Shown: piece by piece, positions 25,001 through 49,670 of the stretch | How positions within the stretch are numbered: the stretch's first letter is position 1 | How the letters are laid out: each line of letters starts with the position of its first letter | Source of the DNA: a virus | Taxonomy: Duplodnaviria > Caudoviricetes | IMG/VR virus record: IMGVR_UViG_3300032233_001498 | Span: 1 to 64,000 of that record | Length of the DNA stretch: 64,000 nt | Direction: 5' to 3' (one strand) | The notes under the pieces: model-generated | Database searches by the model: none | Seen by the model: the letters and a program-made list of their open reading frames with translations, nothing else | Told to the model about the DNA's origin: nothing | Position numbers and translations under genes: made by a program

Positions 25001-26709
25001 TAATTTTTAGAAAATTAAGATGGAAGAATTTTCTTTCAACCGGTAATTACTATACAGAATTACAATTAGACCAAGAAGCAAATACACTAGTAGTTGGTTC
25101 AAACGGGTCAGGTAAGAGCACTATGCTAGATGCATTGTGCTTTTCTTTGTTTGGCAAACCATTTCGTGATATCAACAAACCACAATTGATTAACTCTATC
25201 AATGGTAAAGATTGTATTGTTGAAGTTGAGTTTGATGTAGGCAACAAATCATATAAGATTGTTCGTGCAATTAAACCTAACAGATTTGAAATCTATGTGA
25301 ATGGTGAACTACTGAACCAAGATGCCGCAGTACGTGACTACCAAGAACACCTTGAGAAGTTTATTCTTAAACTGAATTACAAATCATTTACTCAAATTGT
25401 TATCTTGGGTAGCGCTTCGTTTGTGCCGTTCATGCAATTGAAACCTGGTGACCGCAGAGAAATCATTGAAGACTTACTTGACATTCAAATCTTTAGTGCC
25501 ATGAATACGGTACTCAAAGACAAGATGACAAACAACAAGGACTTAATGATTTCTAAGAAGTATGACATTGACTTGAATGAACAGAAACTTGAAATGCATA
25601 AATTGCATATCAACGAGCAGAAACAAAACAATGATGTGAAAGTAAAACAATATGATGATGAGATACAAAGTAATCAGAGTGTGGTACAAACCATACATGA
25701 AGAAATTGGCCGACTTACACAAACTGTATCGGAACTCTCCGAACAAGTCATTAGCAAGAGTGAAATTGAGACTAAGGTCAAGACGTTTAATAAACTTGAA
25801 TCTCAAATTGAAAGCAACTTATCCAAATTTCGAAAAGATATACGTTTCTTTGACACAAATGATAGTTGTCCAACGTGTAGGCAGGCCATTGCCTTGGAGT
25901 TTAAGGAGACGGAGCTTACCGGTCTCACCAACAAGGTCGAGAAATGTGAACATGGTCTCAGCGAGCTTGAACAAAAACTAATTGTTGAACAAGATAAACT
26001 GAATGTTATTGCAGATATTCAGAGACAGATTCAAATAAATCAAGTTGAGATTGCAACAAAGAATACCACTATTACCGAAACGAATAAGTATATTTCTAAG
26101 TTGCAAAAAGAAATCAAGACACTAACTGAGAAGAAAGAAAGTTCAGTTACAGAAGAATCACAGTTAACAATTCTAAATGATACGTTGACAACAATGAAGG
26201 CTGACTTGAAGGCATTGATTGATGAGAAGACTTATTATGAAGTTGCCTCAAACTTGTTAAAAGATACAGGTATCAAAACGAAGATTATTCGTCAGTACTT
26301 GCCTATCATTAATAAGTTGGTGAACAAACACTTGGCAACATTGGACTTCTTTGTTAACTTTAACCTTGATGAAAGTTTCAAAGAAACAATTAAGTCCCGT
26401 CACCGTGATGAATTCAGTTACGCATCATTTAGTGAAGGTGAGAAACAACGTATTGACATGGCACTTATGTTGACATGGCGTGCAGTTGCAAAATTAAAGA
26501 ACTCAGCAAATACAAACTTGTTGATTTTGGATGAAGTGTTTGATAGTAGTCTCGACACCAATGGTACAGAATACTTGATGAACATTTTACAGATGTTAGA
26601 GAATGTGAATCTTTTTGTTATCTCTCATAAGGGTGATATACTACAAGATAAATTTAGAAGTGTGATTCGTTTTGATAAAGTTAAGAATTTTTCGAGGATT
26701 GTAAAATGA
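24997..26709 (+). CDS. gp46: Recombination ATPase gp46 (Rad50/SbcC-like)
   Basis: GSNGSGKST, CPTCRQ zinc hook, FSEGEKQR signature, LDEVFD. Confidence 0.96.
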   Translation: MIIFRKLRWKNFLSTGNYYTELQLDQEANTLVVGSNGSGKSTMLDALCFSLFGKPFRDINKPQLINSINGKDCIVEVEFDVGNKSYKIVRAIKPNRFEIYVNGELLNQDAAVRDYQEHLEKFILKLNYKSFTQIVILGSASFVPFMQLKPGDRREIIEDLLDIQIFSAMNTVLKDKMTNNKDLMISKKYDIDLNEQKLEMHKLHINEQKQNNDVKVKQYDDEIQSNQSVVQTIHEEIGRLTQTVSELSEQVISKSEIETKVKTFNKLESQIESNLSKFRKDIRFFDTNDSCPTCRQAIALEFKETELTGLTNKVEKCEHGLSELEQKLIVEQDKLNVIADIQRQIQINQVEIATKNTTITETNKYISKLQKEIKTLTEKKESSVTEESQLTILNDTLTTMKADLKALIDEKTYYEVASNLLKDTGIKTKIIRQYLPIINKLVNKHLATLDFFVNFNLDESFKETIKSRHRDEFSYASFSEGEKQRIDMALMLTWRAVAKLKNSANTNLLILDEVFDSSLDTNGTEYLMNILQMLENVNLFVISHKGDILQDKFRSVIRFDKVKNFSRIVK

Positions 26710-27278
26710 GTGAAGTGTTAACGTTTAATACCGAAAGTGGTATTGTACAAGAGGAAGAGATTCTACCTCTTCAAGTACTAGATGAGAATTTTCCTGGCCT
26801 ACGTTCTAGTTTGCCAGAAATTGATGTGACTGCATTACCTAATAATGTAACTACTAATTTGGTCAAGCGATTGAAAATGACCATGAAGTTGTATAATGGA
26901 TTAGGTCTTTCGGCAAGTCAATGCGGCATTATGCAAAGAGTTTTTGTTATCGGTACAGACCAGTTTCAAATTGCCTGTATCAATCCTAAAATTGTTTCAA
27001 GTAAGGCAGAAGTTGCAAAAGACAAAGAAGGTTGCCTCTCTTTTCCAGGTTTATCGCTTATAATAGAAAGACCAAAAAGTATTGATGTTGAGTTCTATAC
27101 CGAAAACGGTGAACTCAAACAGATGACACTTGATGGATTGACTGCAAGATGTTTTCAACATGAACTAGACCACCTGAATGGTATTCGGATGACTGAGCAT
27201 GTTAAACCACTTGCATTACAGATGGCTCGAAAAAGACAAAGCAAATTGATTAAACAATACGTGAAAAGATTAAAATAA
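26706..27278 (+). CDS. def: Peptide deformylase
   Basis: GLGLSASQ, EGCLS and QHELDHL motifs. Confidence 0.93.
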   Translation: MSEVLTFNTESGIVQEEEILPLQVLDENFPGLRSSLPEIDVTALPNNVTTNLVKRLKMTMKLYNGLGLSASQCGIMQRVFVIGTDQFQIACINPKIVSSKAEVAKDKEGCLSFPGLSLIIERPKSIDVEFYTENGELKQMTLDGLTARCFQHELDHLNGIRMTEHVKPLALQMARKRQSKLIKQYVKRLK

Positions 27279-28615
27279 TGGCATTCTCATTTGACCCAAA
27301 AGATGACGTAGAAACTCAATGGCTGAAATGGCAAGAAACAAATCCTGCCGATTCATTCATTGATGTTGACGAAGGTAAACTTAAAGAACAGGTTATCTCC
27401 GACTTGTCGTATGTCTCTCAGATGGATGTCAAAGAATATACCTTATATCAAAAGTGGTGTGAGATTCATCAGAAGTATCCAACATTTACCAACAACACAT
27501 TGTTTGGTGAAGAGGTACAACTTTTAGACCCATCACAACAAAAGTTCATTGATGAAATCAAGTCGAACATTTGGATTCCTACCGCACCAGAAGACTATGT
27601 AAATTTGAAACCAATTCTTGTATACACGGATGATTCTGGTTCGATTATGTCAACAGGAATCGATGGCTCAGAAGTTAAGATTGATACGAAACGTAGTAAC
27701 TTACCGGAAGTATGGAACACGATTCGTAATTTCATTTCTACAATGAAGAACAACAGCAACATTGGGCGCAACTTAAACTTCCTTGCAATGGATGAGATTA
27801 CTGGCAAATATATTGGTGTTGTCTGTATAAGTTCCGATTTCCTTGATTTAACTCCACGTGACAACACTATCGGTTGGAAACGTGAATTGAAAACACAAGG
27901 CGGCATGATTAATCATACTGCGATTGGTTCCACAATTGTTCCATTCCAACCACTTGGTTATAACTATGTTGGTGGCAAACTGCTTGCCCTCTTATGTCTA
28001 TCAGACGAGGTTCAACGTTTGTGGAAGAAACAATACGGTGATACATTAGTTGGTGTTACAACAACATCACTCTATGGTAAAACTAAGGCAGGTGGACTAT
28101 CACAGTATGATAACTTAGACCATTGGTTGCCAATGGGTTTTTCAAGTGGTTCTGTATCATTTGAACCTGAACGTGAGACACGTTATCTTATTCGTGAGTG
28201 GTTGAAAAAGAATCACACACGTAGATACTTTGAATGGTATATTGCAAAGAAAGCATCAGGTCAACCACATAAGCGTGACCATAAGAATCGTTCATTGAAT
28301 TTCACTTATTCTAAGTTGAATATTCCTAAAGAAATCATTCGTGCTGAACATCACCGTGGTATTTACTTTAGTCCACTTTACAATAATACCTATGAGTTCT
28401 TACGTGGTGAAATTAAAGAAGACCAATTGGTGAAATCTTTCGACACATCATATGATGCCCTCGTTTCAATTTGGAAAAACAAGTTGGTAAAAGGACGCAT
28501 TAAACAATTGGTGAAGAAAGGTAATGTTTCATATGAAACACTTTTCTATGATGATTTGATTTACCTGTCATGGGAAGAAACTAAGGCAAAGTATCTGTCA
28601 CAAGTCGGCAGATGA
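27278..28615 (+). CDS. DUF4338/DruA-like protein (Mom-like GNAT fold inferred)
   Basis: IGRNLNF..YIGVVCISSDFLDL.PRD..IGW and IVPFQPLGYNYVGGKLLAL..TTTSLYG resemble the DruA/DUF4338 pattern as recalled; not searched. Confidence 0.55.
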   Translation: MAFSFDPKDDVETQWLKWQETNPADSFIDVDEGKLKEQVISDLSYVSQMDVKEYTLYQKWCEIHQKYPTFTNNTLFGEEVQLLDPSQQKFIDEIKSNIWIPTAPEDYVNLKPILVYTDDSGSIMSTGIDGSEVKIDTKRSNLPEVWNTIRNFISTMKNNSNIGRNLNFLAMDEITGKYIGVVCISSDFLDLTPRDNTIGWKRELKTQGGMINHTAIGSTIVPFQPLGYNYVGGKLLALLCLSDEVQRLWKKQYGDTLVGVTTTSLYGKTKAGGLSQYDNLDHWLPMGFSSGSVSFEPERETRYLIREWLKKNHTRRYFEWYIAKKASGQPHKRDHKNRSLNFTYSKLNIPKEIIRAEHHRGIYFSPLYNNTYEFLRGEIKEDQLVKSFDTSYDALVSIWKNKLVKGRIKQLVKKGNVSYETLFYDDLIYLSWEETKAKYLSQVGR

Positions 28616-28627
28616 TGAAAATAGTGG

Positions 28628-28657
28628 TTGCTTTTCATATTAGAAAGCCTATATAAT
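28628..28657 (+). promoter_or_regulatory. Sigma70-type promoter for the tRNA-like RNA
   Basis: TTGCTT (28628-33), 18 nt, TATAAT (28652-57), ending 9 nt before the RNA. Confidence 0.65.
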
Positions 28658-28666
28658 TATATCAAT

Positions 28667-28733
28667 GCGGTTGTTGTAGAACAGTTCAGGTGTCCAACTT
28701 GAACGGTATGTGCGAATCATACAAACCGCTCCA
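28667..28733 (+). tRNA. Atypical tRNA-Gly(UCC)-like RNA, 67 nt, reduced D arm
   Basis: Acceptor GCGGTT/AACCGC + T + CCA; anticodon stem GTTCAGG/CTTGAAC with loop TGTCCAA; T arm GTATG-TGCGAAT-CATAC; 3-bp D arm. Confidence 0.75.
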
Positions 28734-28747
28734 AATTCACAAGTTAA

Positions 28748-28781
28748 GAGACTGTTGCGTAAAAACAACAGTCTTTTTTTT
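28748..28781 (+). terminator. Intrinsic terminator after the tRNA-like RNA
   Basis: AGACTGTTG-CGTAAAAA-CAACAGTCT followed by a T run. Confidence 0.7.
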
Positions 28782-28784
28782 CGC

Positions 28785-28813
28785 TTGCCTTACCCATTAC
28801 CTTGTGTTATACT
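28785..28813 (+). promoter_or_regulatory. Sigma70-type promoter
   Basis: TTGCCT, 17 nt, TATACT. Confidence 0.6.
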
Positions 28814-28838
28814 GGTCTTTTGAGTTGAGGACTATAAC

Positions 28839-29036
28839 ATGATTGATAACGATTATTCCCATACCCTCTTGGAGCAAGAGGAACAACGGTTCCATTTTAG
28901 TACTTTTGATGTACAAGATGCATTCTTGACCTTTTCGGTCAAGAATATACTTGATGAGGTGCGTAAAAATCCTGTTATAAATCAACAGCTTACAGATTAC
29001 CTAAAAACGCTTGACATTGCTGAGGAAGTGTGTTAG
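28839..29036 (+). CDS. Small hypothetical protein
   Basis: SD GAGGA and an upstream promoter; 65 aa. Confidence 0.55.
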   Translation: MIDNDYSHTLLEQEEQRFHFSTFDVQDAFLTFSVKNILDEVRKNPVINQQLTDYLKTLDIAEEVC

Positions 29037-41420: not shown

Positions 41421-41494
41421 AGCGGATTAGTGAAACGGTATCACAAAGGACTCATAATCCTTAATTCCTAGTTCGAATCTGGGGTCCGCAACCA
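41421..41494 (+). tRNA. tRNA-Met(CAT), initiator-like
   Basis: Cloverleaf with loop CTCATAA, T loop TTCGAAT, encoded CCA; 3' end CCGCAACCA and a 1:72 mismatch as in tRNA-fMet. Confidence 0.88.
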
Positions 41495-46265: not shown

Positions 46266-46593
46266 AGAAGGCACACATTATGAGTTTATTGAAACACCGG
46301 AAGTAACTAGTGTAAAACTCATCAAAGGTAAATATAAAGACATTGTTTATAATTACGGCACGGTAAAGGTTGTACCTGATGAATCTAAGCCTACTGTCCA
46401 ATTTGATTACACAGTCACCAACTTTGGTAAACATGAGCCTGACCTATTGACGGCAGACAAAAAATTCACTAAAATGATGGGTGACATATTAATTAATATT
46501 TTTGAAACCGAAATGAACGGTTTTGATTGGACAAAAAAGGAAGAAGATGAATCGTCTGGAATTATCGATACTGAAGAACCTGATTTACAATGA
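46240..46593 (+). CDS. Hypothetical protein in the gp40 (head vertex chaperone) position
   Basis: Between uvsX and gene 41; G.YK..VYNYG.V pattern. Confidence 0.45.
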   Translation: MFNLNKLPKEGTHYEFIETPEVTSVKLIKGKYKDIVYNYGTVKVVPDESKPTVQFDYTVTNFGKHEPDLLTADKKFTKMMGDILINIFETEMNGFDWTKKEEDESSGIIDTEEPDLQ

Positions 46594-47956
46594 TGATTAT
46601 GCTCGAAAGGTTTTGCCTTTTCTTTCAGCCGATTATTTCAATGATGTAGTTGAGAAAAACATCTTCAAAGAGGTGAATGACTTTATCAACAAGTATAAAG
46701 TTCTTCCCACCCATGAAGCATTGGTAATTAATTTTACTGAGAGTAAGAATCATACAGAAGACCAGGTTAAGTCCGCAATCAATACTCTTAAAGAGATTGA
46801 TGATGCTAAGAATCAACCTACTGAAACACAATGGTTGACTGAACAAACTGAAAAGTTCTGCCAAGATAAGGCACTCTATAATGCAATTATGGAATCTGTC
46901 TCCATCTTGGATGAGTCCAATAAAACACTCAAGAGCAAAGGTGAGATTCCAAAACTTCTTGCTGATGCACTTGGTGTGTCTTTTGACCAAAACATCGGTC
47001 ACGATTACATGAACGATTCAGAATCTCGTTTTGAATTTTATCACAAAAAAGAATCTCGTATTCCTTTTGACCTAGAATTCTTTAACAAGATTACAAAAGG
47101 TGGATTACCTAAGAAAACATTGAACATTGCACTTGCTGGCACCGGTGTTGGCAAGTCCTTGTTTATGTGTCATTGTTCTGCCGCTGCGATTAGTCAAGGT
47201 CTGAATGTACTCTATATCTCCCTTGAAATGGCAGAAGAACGTATTGCTGAACGTATCGATGCTAATTTACTGAACGTGACGATGGATGATTTACATTCTA
47301 TCCCACGTGCAGACTATGACCGTAAATTCGGTGCATTGAAGAACAAGGCACAAGGTAAGTTAATCATTAAAGAATATCCAACCGCAAGTGCTGGGTCTAT
47401 GCACTTTCGTTCTCTAATGAATGAATTGCATTTGAAGAAGAACTTTAAACCTGATATCGTATTCGTTGATTACCTAAACATCTGTTGTTCGTCACGTATC
47501 AAACAAGGTGGTTCTGTAAACTCATACACATACATCAAAGCAATTGCAGAAGAACTACGTGGTCTTGCTGTTGAGTTTGATGTACCAATCGTATCTGCAA
47601 CACAAACAACTCGTTCTGGTTTCTCCAACTCTGACGTTGGTTTGGAAGATACTTCTGAATCATTTGGTCTACCTGCAACTGCCGACTTTATGTTTGCATT
47701 GATTAGTACTGAAGAACTAGAACAACTTGGTCAGATTATGGTCAAGCAATTGAAGAATCGTTATAACGACCCCAACTTCAACAAGAAGTTTGTTATTGGT
47801 GTTGACCGTTCTAAGATGAGATTGTATGATGCAGAGAATTCGGCACAAACAGATTTATCCGATAGTGGTCAGGCAATACCTGATAAACCACTAAACACAT
47901 TTGGAAACCGTGAGAATAAATTTCAAAAGAAAAGTTTTGGTGGATTAAAAGTATGA
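46547..47956 (+). CDS. gp41: Replicative helicase gp41
   Basis: AGTGVGKS, SLEMAEE, VDYLN, SATQTTR, ESFGLPATADF, QLKNRY. Confidence 0.96.
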   Translation: MNRLELSILKNLIYNDDYARKVLPFLSADYFNDVVEKNIFKEVNDFINKYKVLPTHEALVINFTESKNHTEDQVKSAINTLKEIDDAKNQPTETQWLTEQTEKFCQDKALYNAIMESVSILDESNKTLKSKGEIPKLLADALGVSFDQNIGHDYMNDSESRFEFYHKKESRIPFDLEFFNKITKGGLPKKTLNIALAGTGVGKSLFMCHCSAAAISQGLNVLYISLEMAEERIAERIDANLLNVTMDDLHSIPRADYDRKFGALKNKAQGKLIIKEYPTASAGSMHFRSLMNELHLKKNFKPDIVFVDYLNICCSSRIKQGGSVNSYTYIKAIAEELRGLAVEFDVPIVSATQTTRSGFSNSDVGLEDTSESFGLPATADFMFALISTEELEQLGQIMVKQLKNRYNDPNFNKKFVIGVDRSKMRLYDAENSAQTDLSDSGQAIPDKPLNTFGNRENKFQKKSFGGLKV

Positions 47957-48558
47957 AACACATAACTCTTTACAAAAAACTCCATGCATTTGCACCAAAA
48001 TTATACGGTGAGAAAACTACGGGTCAATTGATGTATTGGGTTAGAAAGATGTTAACACCGCACAAGGTCAAAGTAAATCGAATCATTGATAAGAAAAACT
48101 TGGCATTGAGTGGTTATACGATAGGTGGTTTCTACGATTCAACAGGTGAGTTTGGTGATAAAGACATTGAAATGTATCTTGTTTTCAATGAAGAAGATAA
48201 GAACAAAACATTTCTGTTTGAAGAGTGGAGTGTTAAGATGTTGATTGATGAATTGTTTATCACACTTGCACATGAGAAACGACACCGTTATCAATTCAAA
48301 CAAAGAGGCAATGCTTTTGGTCCACAATATCGAAGCAAAGTTACCGATGAAGATTTGAAGGCAGAGTTGGAATATTACGGTGACCCCGATGAGTTGGATG
48401 CCTATGCACAAGAAGCAATCATCGAGGAGAGATTAGGTAGAGATACGCTAATGGGTGCTCAGGCAAAGTACAGACAAATGTTTGCCAATTATGACCCAAA
48501 AGTGTATAATAAATTCTTGAAGAAAAAATATAAATTTGACCAAAAAGTTTCATTATGA
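47953..48558 (+). CDS. Hypothetical protein with HExxH zinc-peptidase-like motif
   Basis: TLAHEKRH and Y..DPDELDAYAQE. Confidence 0.55.
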   Translation: MKHITLYKKLHAFAPKLYGEKTTGQLMYWVRKMLTPHKVKVNRIIDKKNLALSGYTIGGFYDSTGEFGDKDIEMYLVFNEEDKNKTFLFEEWSVKMLIDELFITLAHEKRHRYQFKQRGNAFGPQYRSKVTDEDLKAELEYYGDPDELDAYAQEAIIEERLGRDTLMGAQAKYRQMFANYDPKVYNKFLKKKYKFDQKVSL

Positions 48559-49670
48559 ATTTAACTAAAGAGCAGGCAATCCATGGTGCCAATGTATTCT
48601 CAGACTACTTTGATAGGTTTGGTCGTATCGATGAGTACATGCGTGAACAGAAACTAACTGCGATGGCCGAAAGGCCATTCGTTCTTCCTGGCATGGGACC
48701 TGAAGAAGATTTGTTCTCTGATTTTTCTATGTCACCTGCTGACATGGATTTTGAGATTGTGGAGTTGCCGCAAGAACGTTGGGACACTTATCTCAATATG
48801 ATTTCAAGTCACTCAAACATGACCAGTATTCCTGGTCGTTGCTTGCGCCTTGCTGTATTTGAAAAGAAAACACAGAAGTGGTGTGGTTTCATTCGCCTTG
48901 GTTCACCAGTTATCAATTGTAAACCACGTAACGAAATGTTAGGTGAAGTCTTTACTCAACGTGACGGCGGCGCCCAACAGTTCAACAAGTGTGCAATCAT
49001 GGGTTTCGTAATTGTACCTGCACAACCATTCGGTTTCAATTATCTTGGTGGTAAGTTACTTGCTGCTATCTGCACATCACATGAAGTACGTAAGATGATG
49101 AACGCCAAATATAACATGACCACATGTCTGTTTGAGACCACATCACTCTATGGTTCATCTAAGACTGTATCACAATATGATGGTATGAAACCTCTGATTC
49201 GTTTCAAAGGCTTGACTGATAGTGACTTCTTGCCTATGTTGCACGGCAAAACATATACAGACTTAAAAGACTACATTGAGAACATTACAGGCGAACCACT
49301 TGCACCACTAGATGCTTCTAGTCGTAAGTTGAAAATATCAAATGCAATGGTTGGCATGATTAAAGTTGCACTCAAAGGCAAACCAGAAGGTGAGAAGTTT
49401 GCAAAAACTATTGAGAATGCAAAGAATCTAAACGAACAAAAACGTTATTTTGTTTCTGATTATGGTTTTAAGAACATGGTTGACGTAGTGAATGGTAAGG
49501 CAGATAAGTTGATTCCAGGTGAAAACTATGAGAAACACAATCTAGCCAATATTGTGGAGTGGTGGAGAAAGAAGGCCATCAACCGATTTGATACTTTGAA
49601 TATAGAAGGTCGCATTCGTACTGAACAAGAGGTCTGGACAGGCGATAAACATATTGACATTATTAGGTGA
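48555..49670 (+). CDS. Second DUF4338/DruA-like protein, paralogue of 27278..28615
   Basis: Shares IVPxQPxGxNYxGGKLLA..S.EV..TTSLYG..SQYD with the first copy. Confidence 0.6.
   Translation: MNLTKEQAIHGANVFSDYFDRFGRIDEYMREQKLTAMAERPFVLPGMGPEEDLFSDFSMSPADMDFEIVELPQERWDTYLNMISSHSNMTSIPGRCLRLAVFEKKTQKWCGFIRLGSPVINCKPRNEMLGEVFTQRDGGAQQFNKCAIMGFVIVPAQPFGFNYLGGKLLAAICTSHEVRKMMNAKYNMTTCLFETTSLYGSSKTVSQYDGMKPLIRFKGLTDSDFLPMLHGKTYTDLKDYIENITGEPLAPLDASSRKLKISNAMVGMIKVALKGKPEGEKFAKTIENAKNLNEQKRYFVSDYGFKNMVDVVNGKADKLIPGENYEKHNLANIVEWWRKKAINRFDTLNIEGRIRTEQEVWTGDKHIDIIR

Follow-up and report, generated by a model that had tools for sequence, protein, structure and literature searches.

A miniature tRNA-Gly-like RNA beside a DruA-family gene in T4-like phages: a possible private glycine carrier

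What is a shrunken tRNA-Gly doing directly behind a DruA-family gene in a phage genome? The pair lies in a 64,000-nt stretch of DNA (hereafter the window) from an 88-kb IMG/VR record, a contig of an uncultured aquatic T4-like phage. A sequence-only reading of this window had proposed that the phage couples a Mom-like transferase with a glycine-donating tRNA of its own that stays out of translation. The locus itself is as first described (Table 1): the ORF belongs to the DruA/DUF4338 family (Pfam PF14236, 66.5 bits against a cut-off of 27, E 2.9e-18, residues 145-377), it stops with TGA at 28613-28615, and the RNA starts exactly 51 nt later. The gene lies between those for peptide deformylase and a phage peptidase, in a neighborhood that also holds gp47/gp46-like nuclease subunits and a 65-aa ORF. 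A shorter paralogue, 39% identical to the long protein over 157 aa, sits after a DnaB-like helicase gene and may also make use of the RNA.

Table 1. Positions of the DruA-family genes, the mini-RNA and its putative expression signals in the window
Feature	Coordinates	Strand	Basis and remarks
Long DruA/DUF4338-family gene, predicted GNAT acyltransferase	27278..28615	+	445 aa; PF14236, PADLOC DruA, modeled fold
Candidate sigma-70-like promoter of the RNA	28628..28657	+	Read from sequence; weak -35, perfect -10
Miniature tRNA-Gly-like RNA, 67 nt	28667..28733	+	Folds, covariance model R1, family covariation
Intrinsic terminator 3' of the RNA	28746..28781	+	Terminator scan and fold
Short DruA-family paralogue, 371 aa	48555..49670	+	PF14236 (E 5.2e-9); replication module

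A family of miniature tRNA-Gly-like RNAs

The RNA (hereafter the mini-RNA) opens with GCGG and closes with CCGC-U-CCA, so that U73 is present and the CCA is encoded. Its acceptor stem has six pairs (G1-C72, C2-G71, G3-C70, G4-C69 and two U-A pairs), its D hairpin has three pairs and a 4-nt loop (GUAG), its variable region is a single nucleotide, and its T arm has five pairs and the loop UGCGAAU. The anticodon-like arm had been drawn as a 7-bp stem with a 7-nt loop; folding favors an 8-bp stem closed by the 5-nt loop GUCCA, which holds UCC. The cloverleaf has a minimum free energy of -22.2 kcal/mol, with a z-score of -3.8 when the flanks are included. The canonical marks of a decoding tRNA, namely a 7-nt anticodon loop with U33, GG in the D loop and U54-U55-C56 in the T loop, are absent from the window's copy, while the four-helix cloverleaf and the CCA end of a canonical tRNA are there. 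Without G18, G19 and U55 in the D and T loops, the elbow of the molecule must differ from that of ordinary tRNAs. ARAGORN calls no tRNA at this position, nor does Rfam match a tRNA when E values up to 10 are allowed. We do not take this silence as an argument against the RNA, as covariation supports a real cloverleaf.

A covariance model (R1) places the RNA far beyond chance. It scores the window's copy at 73.1 bits (E 1.7e-16) and makes a single match in the 64-kb window, and likewise in the 88-kb record (E 4e-17). IMG/VR contains 78 distinct variants of 63-69 nt. When the family alignment is fitted to the model, pairing is seen in 91.2% of pair cells, compared with 42%-53% when the partners are slid. 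Compensatory changes are seen in 17 of the 22 pairs, all four helices are supported by covariation, and none of 500 shuffles reaches the observed values. The mini-RNA thus belongs to a real RNA family, and its derivation from tRNA-Gly, suggested on first reading, is borne out.

In an alignment of 32 sequences the invariant nucleotides are G1, C2, G3, G4, the C-C of the loop, G53, A58, C61 and the terminal CCGC-U-CCA. The determinants read by bacterial alpha2beta2 GlyRS are G1C72, C2G71, C35, C36, U73 and a purine-4:pyrimidine-69 pair (PMC10464925). The window's mini-RNA carries all of them as well as G3:C70, and they are invariant in the same alignment, in which the sole invariants are these determinants, the CCA and the core of the T arm. 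The anticodon arm varies far more. NCC is kept in 78/78 variants, and the wobble position before the first loop CC is free, being U (47 variants, including UCCCAA-type loops that could also be read as CCC) or A (26 variants). The loop has 5 nt in 59 variants, 4 nt in 11, 6 nt in three and 7 nt in none, and 55 variants have a stem of 8-9 bp. An exact 21-nt pattern of the arm found nothing in IMG/VR because the arm evolves too fast. Loops of 4-6 nt on such long stems make decoding by the mini-RNA appear unlikely. Function aside, tRNA finders and Rfam overlook this structured RNA family, which lacks annotation, and the minimal set of nucleotides it retains amounts to a natural experiment on what GlyRS requires.

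The mini-RNA had also been credited with its own promoter and terminator. The terminator is called by our scan, with a 12-bp stem at 28746-28777, an 8-nt loop and a T-run to 28781, and in relatives, too, a terminator-like hairpin follows the RNA at this position. The promoter is less clear-cut: a perfect -10 box (TATAAT, 28652-28657) ends 9 nt before G1, but the -35 (TTGCTT, 28628-28633) matches the consensus at only three of six positions with an 18-nt spacer, which is why a simple consensus scan calls no promoter upstream of the RNA. In 52 of the 61 relatives in which the RNA adjoins the gene, G1 is preceded at 5-20 nt by a -10-like box, and many of these adjacent relatives have a TTGAC-type -35 at the same place. 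In some relatives the RNA abuts the DruA stop codon and has no promoter.

Linkage of the mini-RNA to the long DruA gene

The pairing is not peculiar to this phage. Among 76 related loci in which the downstream flank is present, the mini-RNA follows the long DruA gene by 5-75 nt in 61, and this adjacency persists over DruA divergence down to ~59% identity. A sister clade has a different arrangement, with the mini-RNA in a tRNA cluster, directly beside a canonical tRNA-Gly (UCC or GCC). In 7/7 contigs of at least 24 kb with the RNA in such a cluster, the DruA genes are found elsewhere in the genome; these large contigs carry both paralogues. By comparison, among 22 control contigs (34-221 kb) that have the same canonical tRNA-Gly type and no mini-RNA, the long DruA is seen in 0/22 and the short DruA in 2/22 (Fisher p 6e-7 and 2e-5, respectively, both optimistic given that the contigs are related). 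The linkage expected between gene and RNA in related phages is hence observed. Describing the RNA as dedicated to the gene fits the 61 adjacent loci and does not fit the sister clade, which keeps it among tRNAs. Its occurrence there also leads us to reject the idea that it belongs to the DruA mRNA as a 3'-UTR or processing element.

The association has its exceptions. Twelve distinct relatives, all in one clade, have the long DruA without the mini-RNA, as do the cultured Pelagibacter phages Mosig and HTVC008M, in which the enzyme is present and the RNA absent; the mini-RNA must therefore be accessory. HTVC008M carries an unusual tRNA-Gly(ACC). Mapped onto the DruA tree, adjacency and its absence require no more than three changes, two of them forced. 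Few independent events thus underlie the linkage, and a repeated independent origin of the adjacency is not supported. Cyanophage loci with a short DruA, for which there is no control set, have no mini-RNA, and a canonical tRNA-Gly(UCC) is found elsewhere in those genomes. A distant DruA representative (P0160) lies in a bacterial island of the integrase/HU type with no tRNA nearby and has no relatives in IMG/VR.

The tRNA-Gly of T4-like clusters shares the acceptor stem GCGG...CCGC-U-CCA with the mini-RNA. It is otherwise an ordinary tRNA of 74-76 nt with the 7-nt loop UUUCCAA, GG in the D loop and TTCGA in the T loop; it is called by ARAGORN and scores ~35-45 bits on model R1, compared to 49-78 bits for mini-RNAs. 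As it adjoins the mini-RNA in many contigs and shares the acceptor stem, it is likely the ancestor, by duplication. The presence of both side by side indicates that the mini-RNA is an extra, specialized copy and not the decoding tRNA-Gly.

A predicted GNAT fold and the comparison with Mom

The long protein also matches the DruA model of PADLOC (E 4.3e-16) and phrog_19197, and our searches recovered more than 3,500 close proteins and 890 clusters at 50% identity. DUF4338 has been classed as a GNAT domain (PMC10853773). Our AF2 model (pLDDT 92.7) agrees, predicting that the protein has a GNAT fold with its core at about residues 105-390. In a VIA-align comparison the top structural neighbor of the model is Mom of phage Mu (8bv8, chain entry 8bv8_B; Z 9.8, rmsd 3.9 over 167 aa), nearly tied with generic GNATs that follow at Z 8.9-8.0, within about one Z-unit. 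Most of the structural neighbors are acetyl-CoA enzymes. Foldseek with the full model against PDB gives weak GNAT matches (best E 6e-3), with Mom not among the matches listed. At the sequence level, phmmer finds no match for the protein in PDB, comparing the DruA profile by hhalign with the sequence of Mom, and with an alignment of 30 Mom sequences, yields a probability below 1%, and the Mom model PF25680 has no match in the 88-kb record and none for the ORF at E values up to 0.1. A sub-threshold lead in the ESM Atlas points to PF22559, a phage GNAT-like family (score 0.86). The Mom-like character proposed for DUF4338 is thus upheld as regards the GNAT fold, and beyond that shared fold the protein is not demonstrably Mom-like.

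Mom is nonetheless the most instructive comparison. The sequence-only reading had brought up its use of Gly-tRNAGly, and this is now published: Mom takes glycine from host Gly-tRNAGly, modifies adenine in dsDNA at N6 and apparently recognizes chiefly the acceptor end of the tRNA (Silva et al., Nat Commun 2026, PMC13219725). That same end is what the mini-RNA keeps invariant, and both proteins are phage-encoded and share the GNAT fold. The differences are also substantial. Mom has 241 aa, whereas the protein here has 445 aa and additional parts at both termini. The tRNAs that Mom draws on are those of the host, and no RNA dedicated to it has been described, whereas here there is a candidate private RNA. 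Mom has an HTH-like insertion and depends on R111, S124, D149 and R151, to which the DruA invariants (G180, K234, T262, T263, Y277, W399 and R407) do not map by sequence. The beta4-alpha3 loop of the DruA proteins has a conserved Q-P-x-G-x-N...GGK motif where GNATs bind the pyrophosphate of CoA, and so an acetyl-CoA-dependent enzyme must be kept in mind.

No fold is recognized in the first ~100 residues of the protein. Folded alone, the N-terminal 142 residues give a pLDDT of 84.6 and a pTM of 0.46 with no fold match (Z no higher than 3.5, Foldseek E at least 0.3), which leaves unsupported a winged helix that had been guessed from the order of secondary-structure elements. The DruA protein of type I Druantia anti-phage defense shares this Pfam and PADLOC classification and the GNAT domain (PMC10853773), but it has the partners DruB-E, and the phage gene has no Druantia partners nearby. 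Literature searches turned up no paper that connects DruA with tRNA and none describing a DruA and mini-RNA system.

Glycine carrier, decoy or enzyme partner

We put at about even the chance that the mini-RNA is a ribosome-orthogonal glycine carrier serving the adjacent long DruA GNAT. The RNA would be transcribed from its own promoter or together with the gene upstream, processed so that it ends in the encoded CCA, and charged with glycine by the host GlyRS. The long DruA GNAT would then use it as the donor of activated glycine for a glycyl transfer, by analogy with Mu Mom and with the staphylococcal Fem enzymes. On this view the mini-RNA is a tRNA-Gly, shrunken but with arm lengths roughly preserved, that keeps the features GlyRS reads and lacks both the 7-nt anticodon loop and the tertiary contacts between D and T loops found in decoding tRNAs. 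Phage DNA is our leading guess for the acceptor.

A dedicated glycine donor for a GNAT-fold transferase outside translation has a bacterial precedent. Staphylococci keep extra, non-proteogenic tRNAGly beside their decoding copies, and these feed glycine to FemX, FemA and FemB. The staphylococcal tRNAs are full-size with normal anticodon loops, whereas the mini-RNA is shrunken; the Fem system is bacterial and marked by T-stem changes that reduce EF-Tu affinity, whereas the one here is phage-encoded; and the partner here is of the DruA family and not the Fem family, with FemA (1lrz) in the middle of the list of structural neighbors (Z 7.9, rmsd 6.1). Counted against a glycine carrier is the report that bacterial GlyRS needs the whole L-shape (PMC10464925), together with the placement of C35 and C36 in a 5-nt loop.

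If this reading is right, the pair would be the first case of a virus encoding a non-decoding aminoacyl carrier together with its own transferase, and the RNA a natural orthogonal tRNA that solely delivers activated glycine. It would extend tRNA-dependent DNA modification, as performed by Mu Mom, to a second and much larger GNAT family, one abundant in freshwater and marine T4-like phages, and would offer a biochemical hypothesis for the role of DruA in Druantia defense. A broader proposal, which we advance tentatively and regard as possible though doubtful, is that DruA-family GNATs in general, including both paralogues and the Druantia DruA, may be aminoacyl-tRNA-dependent glycyl transferases acting on nucleic acid, likely DNA, and that a private carrier evolved to keep DNA hypermodification from drawing on the Gly-tRNAGly that translation needs.

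Other explanations would do without a glycyl transfer by DruA. The mini-RNA could be a tRNA-Gly mimic or decoy independent of DruA, for instance a sponge or sacrificial substrate for a host defense such as TacT-type GNAT toxins, which acetylate Gly-tRNAGly, or toxins that modify the acceptor end. Phages commonly carry tRNA clusters, and in one clade the mini-RNA sits in such a cluster; its conservation at the acceptor end and the GlyRS determinants would suit a decoy that needs charging, and GNAT toxins that target Gly-tRNAGly are known, going by work cited in PMC13219725. However, a decoy for anticodon nucleases should keep the native 7-nt loop, which no variant does, and the RNA tracks the long DruA in the tRNA-cluster contigs and lies directly downstream of it across deep divergence, all of which makes this reading an unlikely one.

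We also think it improbable that the RNA is instead a substrate, guide, activator or structural partner of the DruA GNAT, as in an acetyl-CoA-dependent acylation of glycyl-RNA or of a base. This would fit the linkage as well as a glycine carrier does, and the motif at the canonical CoA-pyrophosphate position, the preponderance of acetyl-CoA enzymes among the structural neighbors and the existence of tRNA-modifying GNATs such as TmcA and TacT all speak for it. It leaves the invariance of the exact GlyRS set unexplained unless charging matters, and the relatives that have the enzyme without the RNA show that the RNA is not an obligatory substrate.

It would be very surprising if the mini-RNA were a reduced tRNA-Gly that still decodes GGN codons in the manner of armless mitochondrial tRNAs. 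The cloverleaf, the T arm with G53-C61 and A58, the CCA and the NCC at the center of the loop are what one would expect of such a tRNA, but the 4-6 nt loops are closed by Watson-Crick pairs, U33 is absent in the window's copy, A34 is frequent, a canonical tRNA-Gly adjoins the mini-RNA elsewhere, and neither ARAGORN nor Rfam recognizes it. A decaying tRNA-Gly pseudogene or a processing signal without function of its own is scarcely credible: the RNA is evidently derived from tRNA-Gly and in some relatives abuts the DruA stop without a promoter, but 78 variants keep four helices through compensatory changes together with a fixed set of nucleotides, and the RNA is also found far from DruA in tRNA clusters.

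The miniature RNA beside DruA and its family

The window is part of an 88-kb contig in IMG/VR from an aquatic, T4-like phage; judged by the DruA protein, the nearest cultured relatives are the Pelagibacter myophages Mosig (59.6% amino acid identity) and HTVC008M (53.8%). Upstream of the DruA gene are gp47/gp46-like nuclease genes and a peptide deformylase gene; downstream of it lies a phage peptidase gene. This neighborhood is variable, as the flanking genes of Mosig differ from these: two 2OG-Fe(II)/phytanoyl-CoA dioxygenase-like genes lie on the upstream side and a MazG gene comes after DruA. The sequence-only reading had placed a tRNA-Gly-like RNA (here, the mini-RNA) just past the DruA gene, with its own promoter and terminator, and both its coordinates and its signals hold (see table).

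Features of the window around the mini-RNA and the two DruA genes
Feature	Position	Strand	Description
Peptide deformylase gene	26706-27278	+	abuts DruA gene on its upstream side
Long DruA gene	27278..28615	+	445 aa; Pfam DruA/DUF4338 E 2.9e-18; PADLOC DruA
-10 box of mini-RNA	28652-28657	+	perfect; accompanying -35 weak
Mini-RNA	28667-28733	+	67 nt; 5' end GCGG, 3' end CCGC-U-CCA; 51 nt past DruA stop
Terminator past mini-RNA	28746-28781	+	strong
Promoter-like site and small ORF	28785-29036	+	TTGCCT-17-TATACT with TG, then 65-aa ORF 28839-29036
tRNA-Met(CAT)	41421-41494	+	only ARAGORN-called tRNA in window
Second, shorter DruA paralogue	48555..49670	+	371 aa; replication module

RNAfold predicts a compact cloverleaf for the mini-RNA. 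ARAGORN does not call it in the window, and searching the region against Rfam returns no tRNA, even with E relaxed to 10. A covariance model of the mini-RNA (R1) has a single match in the window and a single one in the whole 88-kb record, which has no canonical tRNA-Gly. The 65-aa ORF beyond the terminator matches nothing in Pfam and is at best borderline in PHROG; several relatives have a comparable small ORF or promoter between mini-RNA and peptidase gene.

The mini-RNA is a real, conserved RNA family. An IMG/VR search with the DruA protein gave 565 relatives, and among the best 80 loci, which were kept, a same-ended RNA lies 5-75 nt past the DruA stop in 61; it is truly absent in 15, and four end at a contig edge. 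R1 was built on a four-helix structure from 32 distinct sequences, which were then realigned to it. Standard pairs fill 91.2% of pair cells in the realignment, versus 42-53% with partners slid 1-3 columns, compensatory double changes occur in 17 of 22 pairs, and the observed values were reached by none of 500 shuffles; fitting the alignment to R1 favors such values, but the margin is large nonetheless.

Charging, decoding, and origin

The interior of the 32 aligned sequences is nearly unconstrained. Invariant are G1-C72, C2-G71, G3-C70, G4-C69, U73, CCA, the two Cs of the middle loop, G53-C61, and A58, a set that matches the published determinants of bacterial α2β2 GlyRS (G1C72, C2G71, C35, C36, U73 and, by preference, purine-4:pyrimidine-69; PMC10464925). 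Scanning a second time for the conserved ends raised the tally to 78 distinct variants of 63-69 nt. By contrast, the hallmarks of a decoding tRNA have been lost. The middle arm of the variants has a stem of 8-9 bp in 55 and a loop of 5 nt in 59, 4 nt in 11, and 6 nt in three; a 7-nt anticodon loop is found in none of the 78. The window's loop, GUCCA, has G at the expected U33 position, and the family's wobble position is unconstrained (U or A). The D hairpin has 3 bp and no GG, and the T loop retains U54 and A58 and has lost U55. Selection would thus appear to keep GlyRS chargeability and a tRNA-like acceptor/T domain, and not codon reading. The idea of a tRNA-Gly derivative that is linked to an enzyme gene and can be charged but does not decode is, at the level of sequence comparison, well supported.

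In 37 further contigs the mini-RNA does not adjoin DruA; the majority of these copies belong to a phage tRNA cluster, where a canonical 74-nt tRNA-Gly(UCC) or tRNA-Gly(GCC) typically starts 70-80 nt away. Because the canonical tRNA sits beside it there, the mini-RNA is an extra, specialized copy, most simply a duplicate of a phage tRNA-Gly. The same clusters rule out two other roles: as the phage's only tRNA-Gly, given the canonical neighbor, and as a cis-acting part of the DruA mRNA, given the distance from DruA. At 12 loci (L095, L097, L102, L104, L106, L108, L122, L125, L126, L134, L153, and L166) the mini-RNA is immediately beside tRNA-Gly(UCC) in a multi-tRNA cluster, as if by tandem duplication. 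HTVC008M has no mini-RNA. Past its DruA gene, at a distance of 3.9 kb, lies a 74-nt tRNA-Gly(ACC) (KC465899.1 91140-91213) with an A34 that is unusual for bacterial Gly and an odd T loop, AGCGUUA; this tRNA may be intermediate on the way to the mini-RNA.

Linkage of the mini-RNA to DruA

Adjacency persists down to about 59% DruA identity, with differing spacers, promoters, and genes downstream. Contigs of less than 15 kb are uninformative for co-occurrence; among the seven of at least 24 kb with a cluster-borne mini-RNA, all have DruA genes elsewhere, six of them both the ~430-aa (long) and ~370-aa (short) types. As controls we took 22 contigs (34-221 kb) that share the 5' half of this canonical tRNA-Gly(UCC) and have no mini-RNA, in which all R1 matches are 74-76 nt and score at most 45 bits. 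The short type occurs in two of them and the long type in none. RNA-gene linkage in related phages, which the sequence-only reading had offered as a check, is thus found both in the adjacency and in the long type (7/7 versus 0/22 contigs; Fisher p 6e-7, and 2e-5 for any DruA, the contigs being fragments and mutually related). The independent linkage events are few, as three changes suffice on an 86-sequence DruA tree to account for the presence or absence of adjacency. Long DruA also occurs with no mini-RNA, in Mosig, in HTVC008M, and in a clade of 12 distinct relatives, so the RNA is an accessory, not a requirement.

The window's short paralogue is preceded by a DnaB-like helicase gene (46523-47956) and a 201-aa ORF of no assigned function, and is of the type that sits between clamp-loader genes in cyanophages.

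The DruA protein and a possible glycyl donor

An AlphaFold2 model of the DruA protein, made with 61 diverse homologues, is of high confidence (pLDDT 92.7, pTM 0.87). Against structural representatives, Mu Mom ranks first (8bv8_B; Z 9.8, rmsd 3.9, 167 residues, model 105-378), followed by ordinary GNAT acetyltransferases at Z 8.9-8.0 and FemA at 7.9; Foldseek returns GNAT rows, all weak. The N-terminal 140 residues have no recognizable fold in structure comparison. Profile-profile comparisons with Mom and with its family alignment are null, and the Mom Pfam model matches nowhere in the 88-kb record. With so narrow a lead and these nulls, the protein is best described as a DruA-family GNAT and not a Mom-family member, and its modeled resemblance to Mom is no more than suggestive. 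Conserved residues cluster at the β4-α3 loop (Q224-P-x-G227...G232-G233-K234) and past β5 (T262-T263-S264). The GNAT β4-α3 loop is where the CoA pyrophosphate is held, so the enzyme could conceivably use acetyl-CoA. Of the supposed link between DUF4338 and Mom-like folds, the GNAT class stands (Krishnan et al., PMC10853773) and Mom-family membership does not.

The use of Gly-tRNAGly by Mom, named in the sequence-only reading, is published: glycine is moved to adenine N6 in dsDNA, and the product then rearranges to give the carbamoylmethyl form (Silva et al., Nat Commun 2026, PMC13219725; preprint 2023). All three E. coli tRNA-Gly isoacceptors serve and Gly-tRNAAla does not, and recognition is suggested to lie mainly at the acceptor end. 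That study concerns host tRNA and mentions neither a dedicated RNA nor DruA; in full-text searches that combined DruA with GNAT, with Mom, or with tRNA, no account of such a pair was found. The proposed transferase with a private glycyl donor is partly supported. Its RNA half has good comparative support; for the enzyme half, fold class, the narrow structural ranking, and analogy suggest that DruA might be Mom-like and transfer glycine to DNA. That the mini-RNA, charged by GlyRS, donates glycine to a DruA-family GNAT seems to us an even proposition, and DNA as the acceptor a rather doubtful one.

A distant DruA homologue (L092; 36% identity, ENA scaffold) lies in a bacterial integrase-bearing island with no tRNA nearby. 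It adjoins guaA and is directly 3' of a gene for an HU-like DNA-binding protein, and a distant DruA representative (P0220) shows the same HU-DruA pairing.
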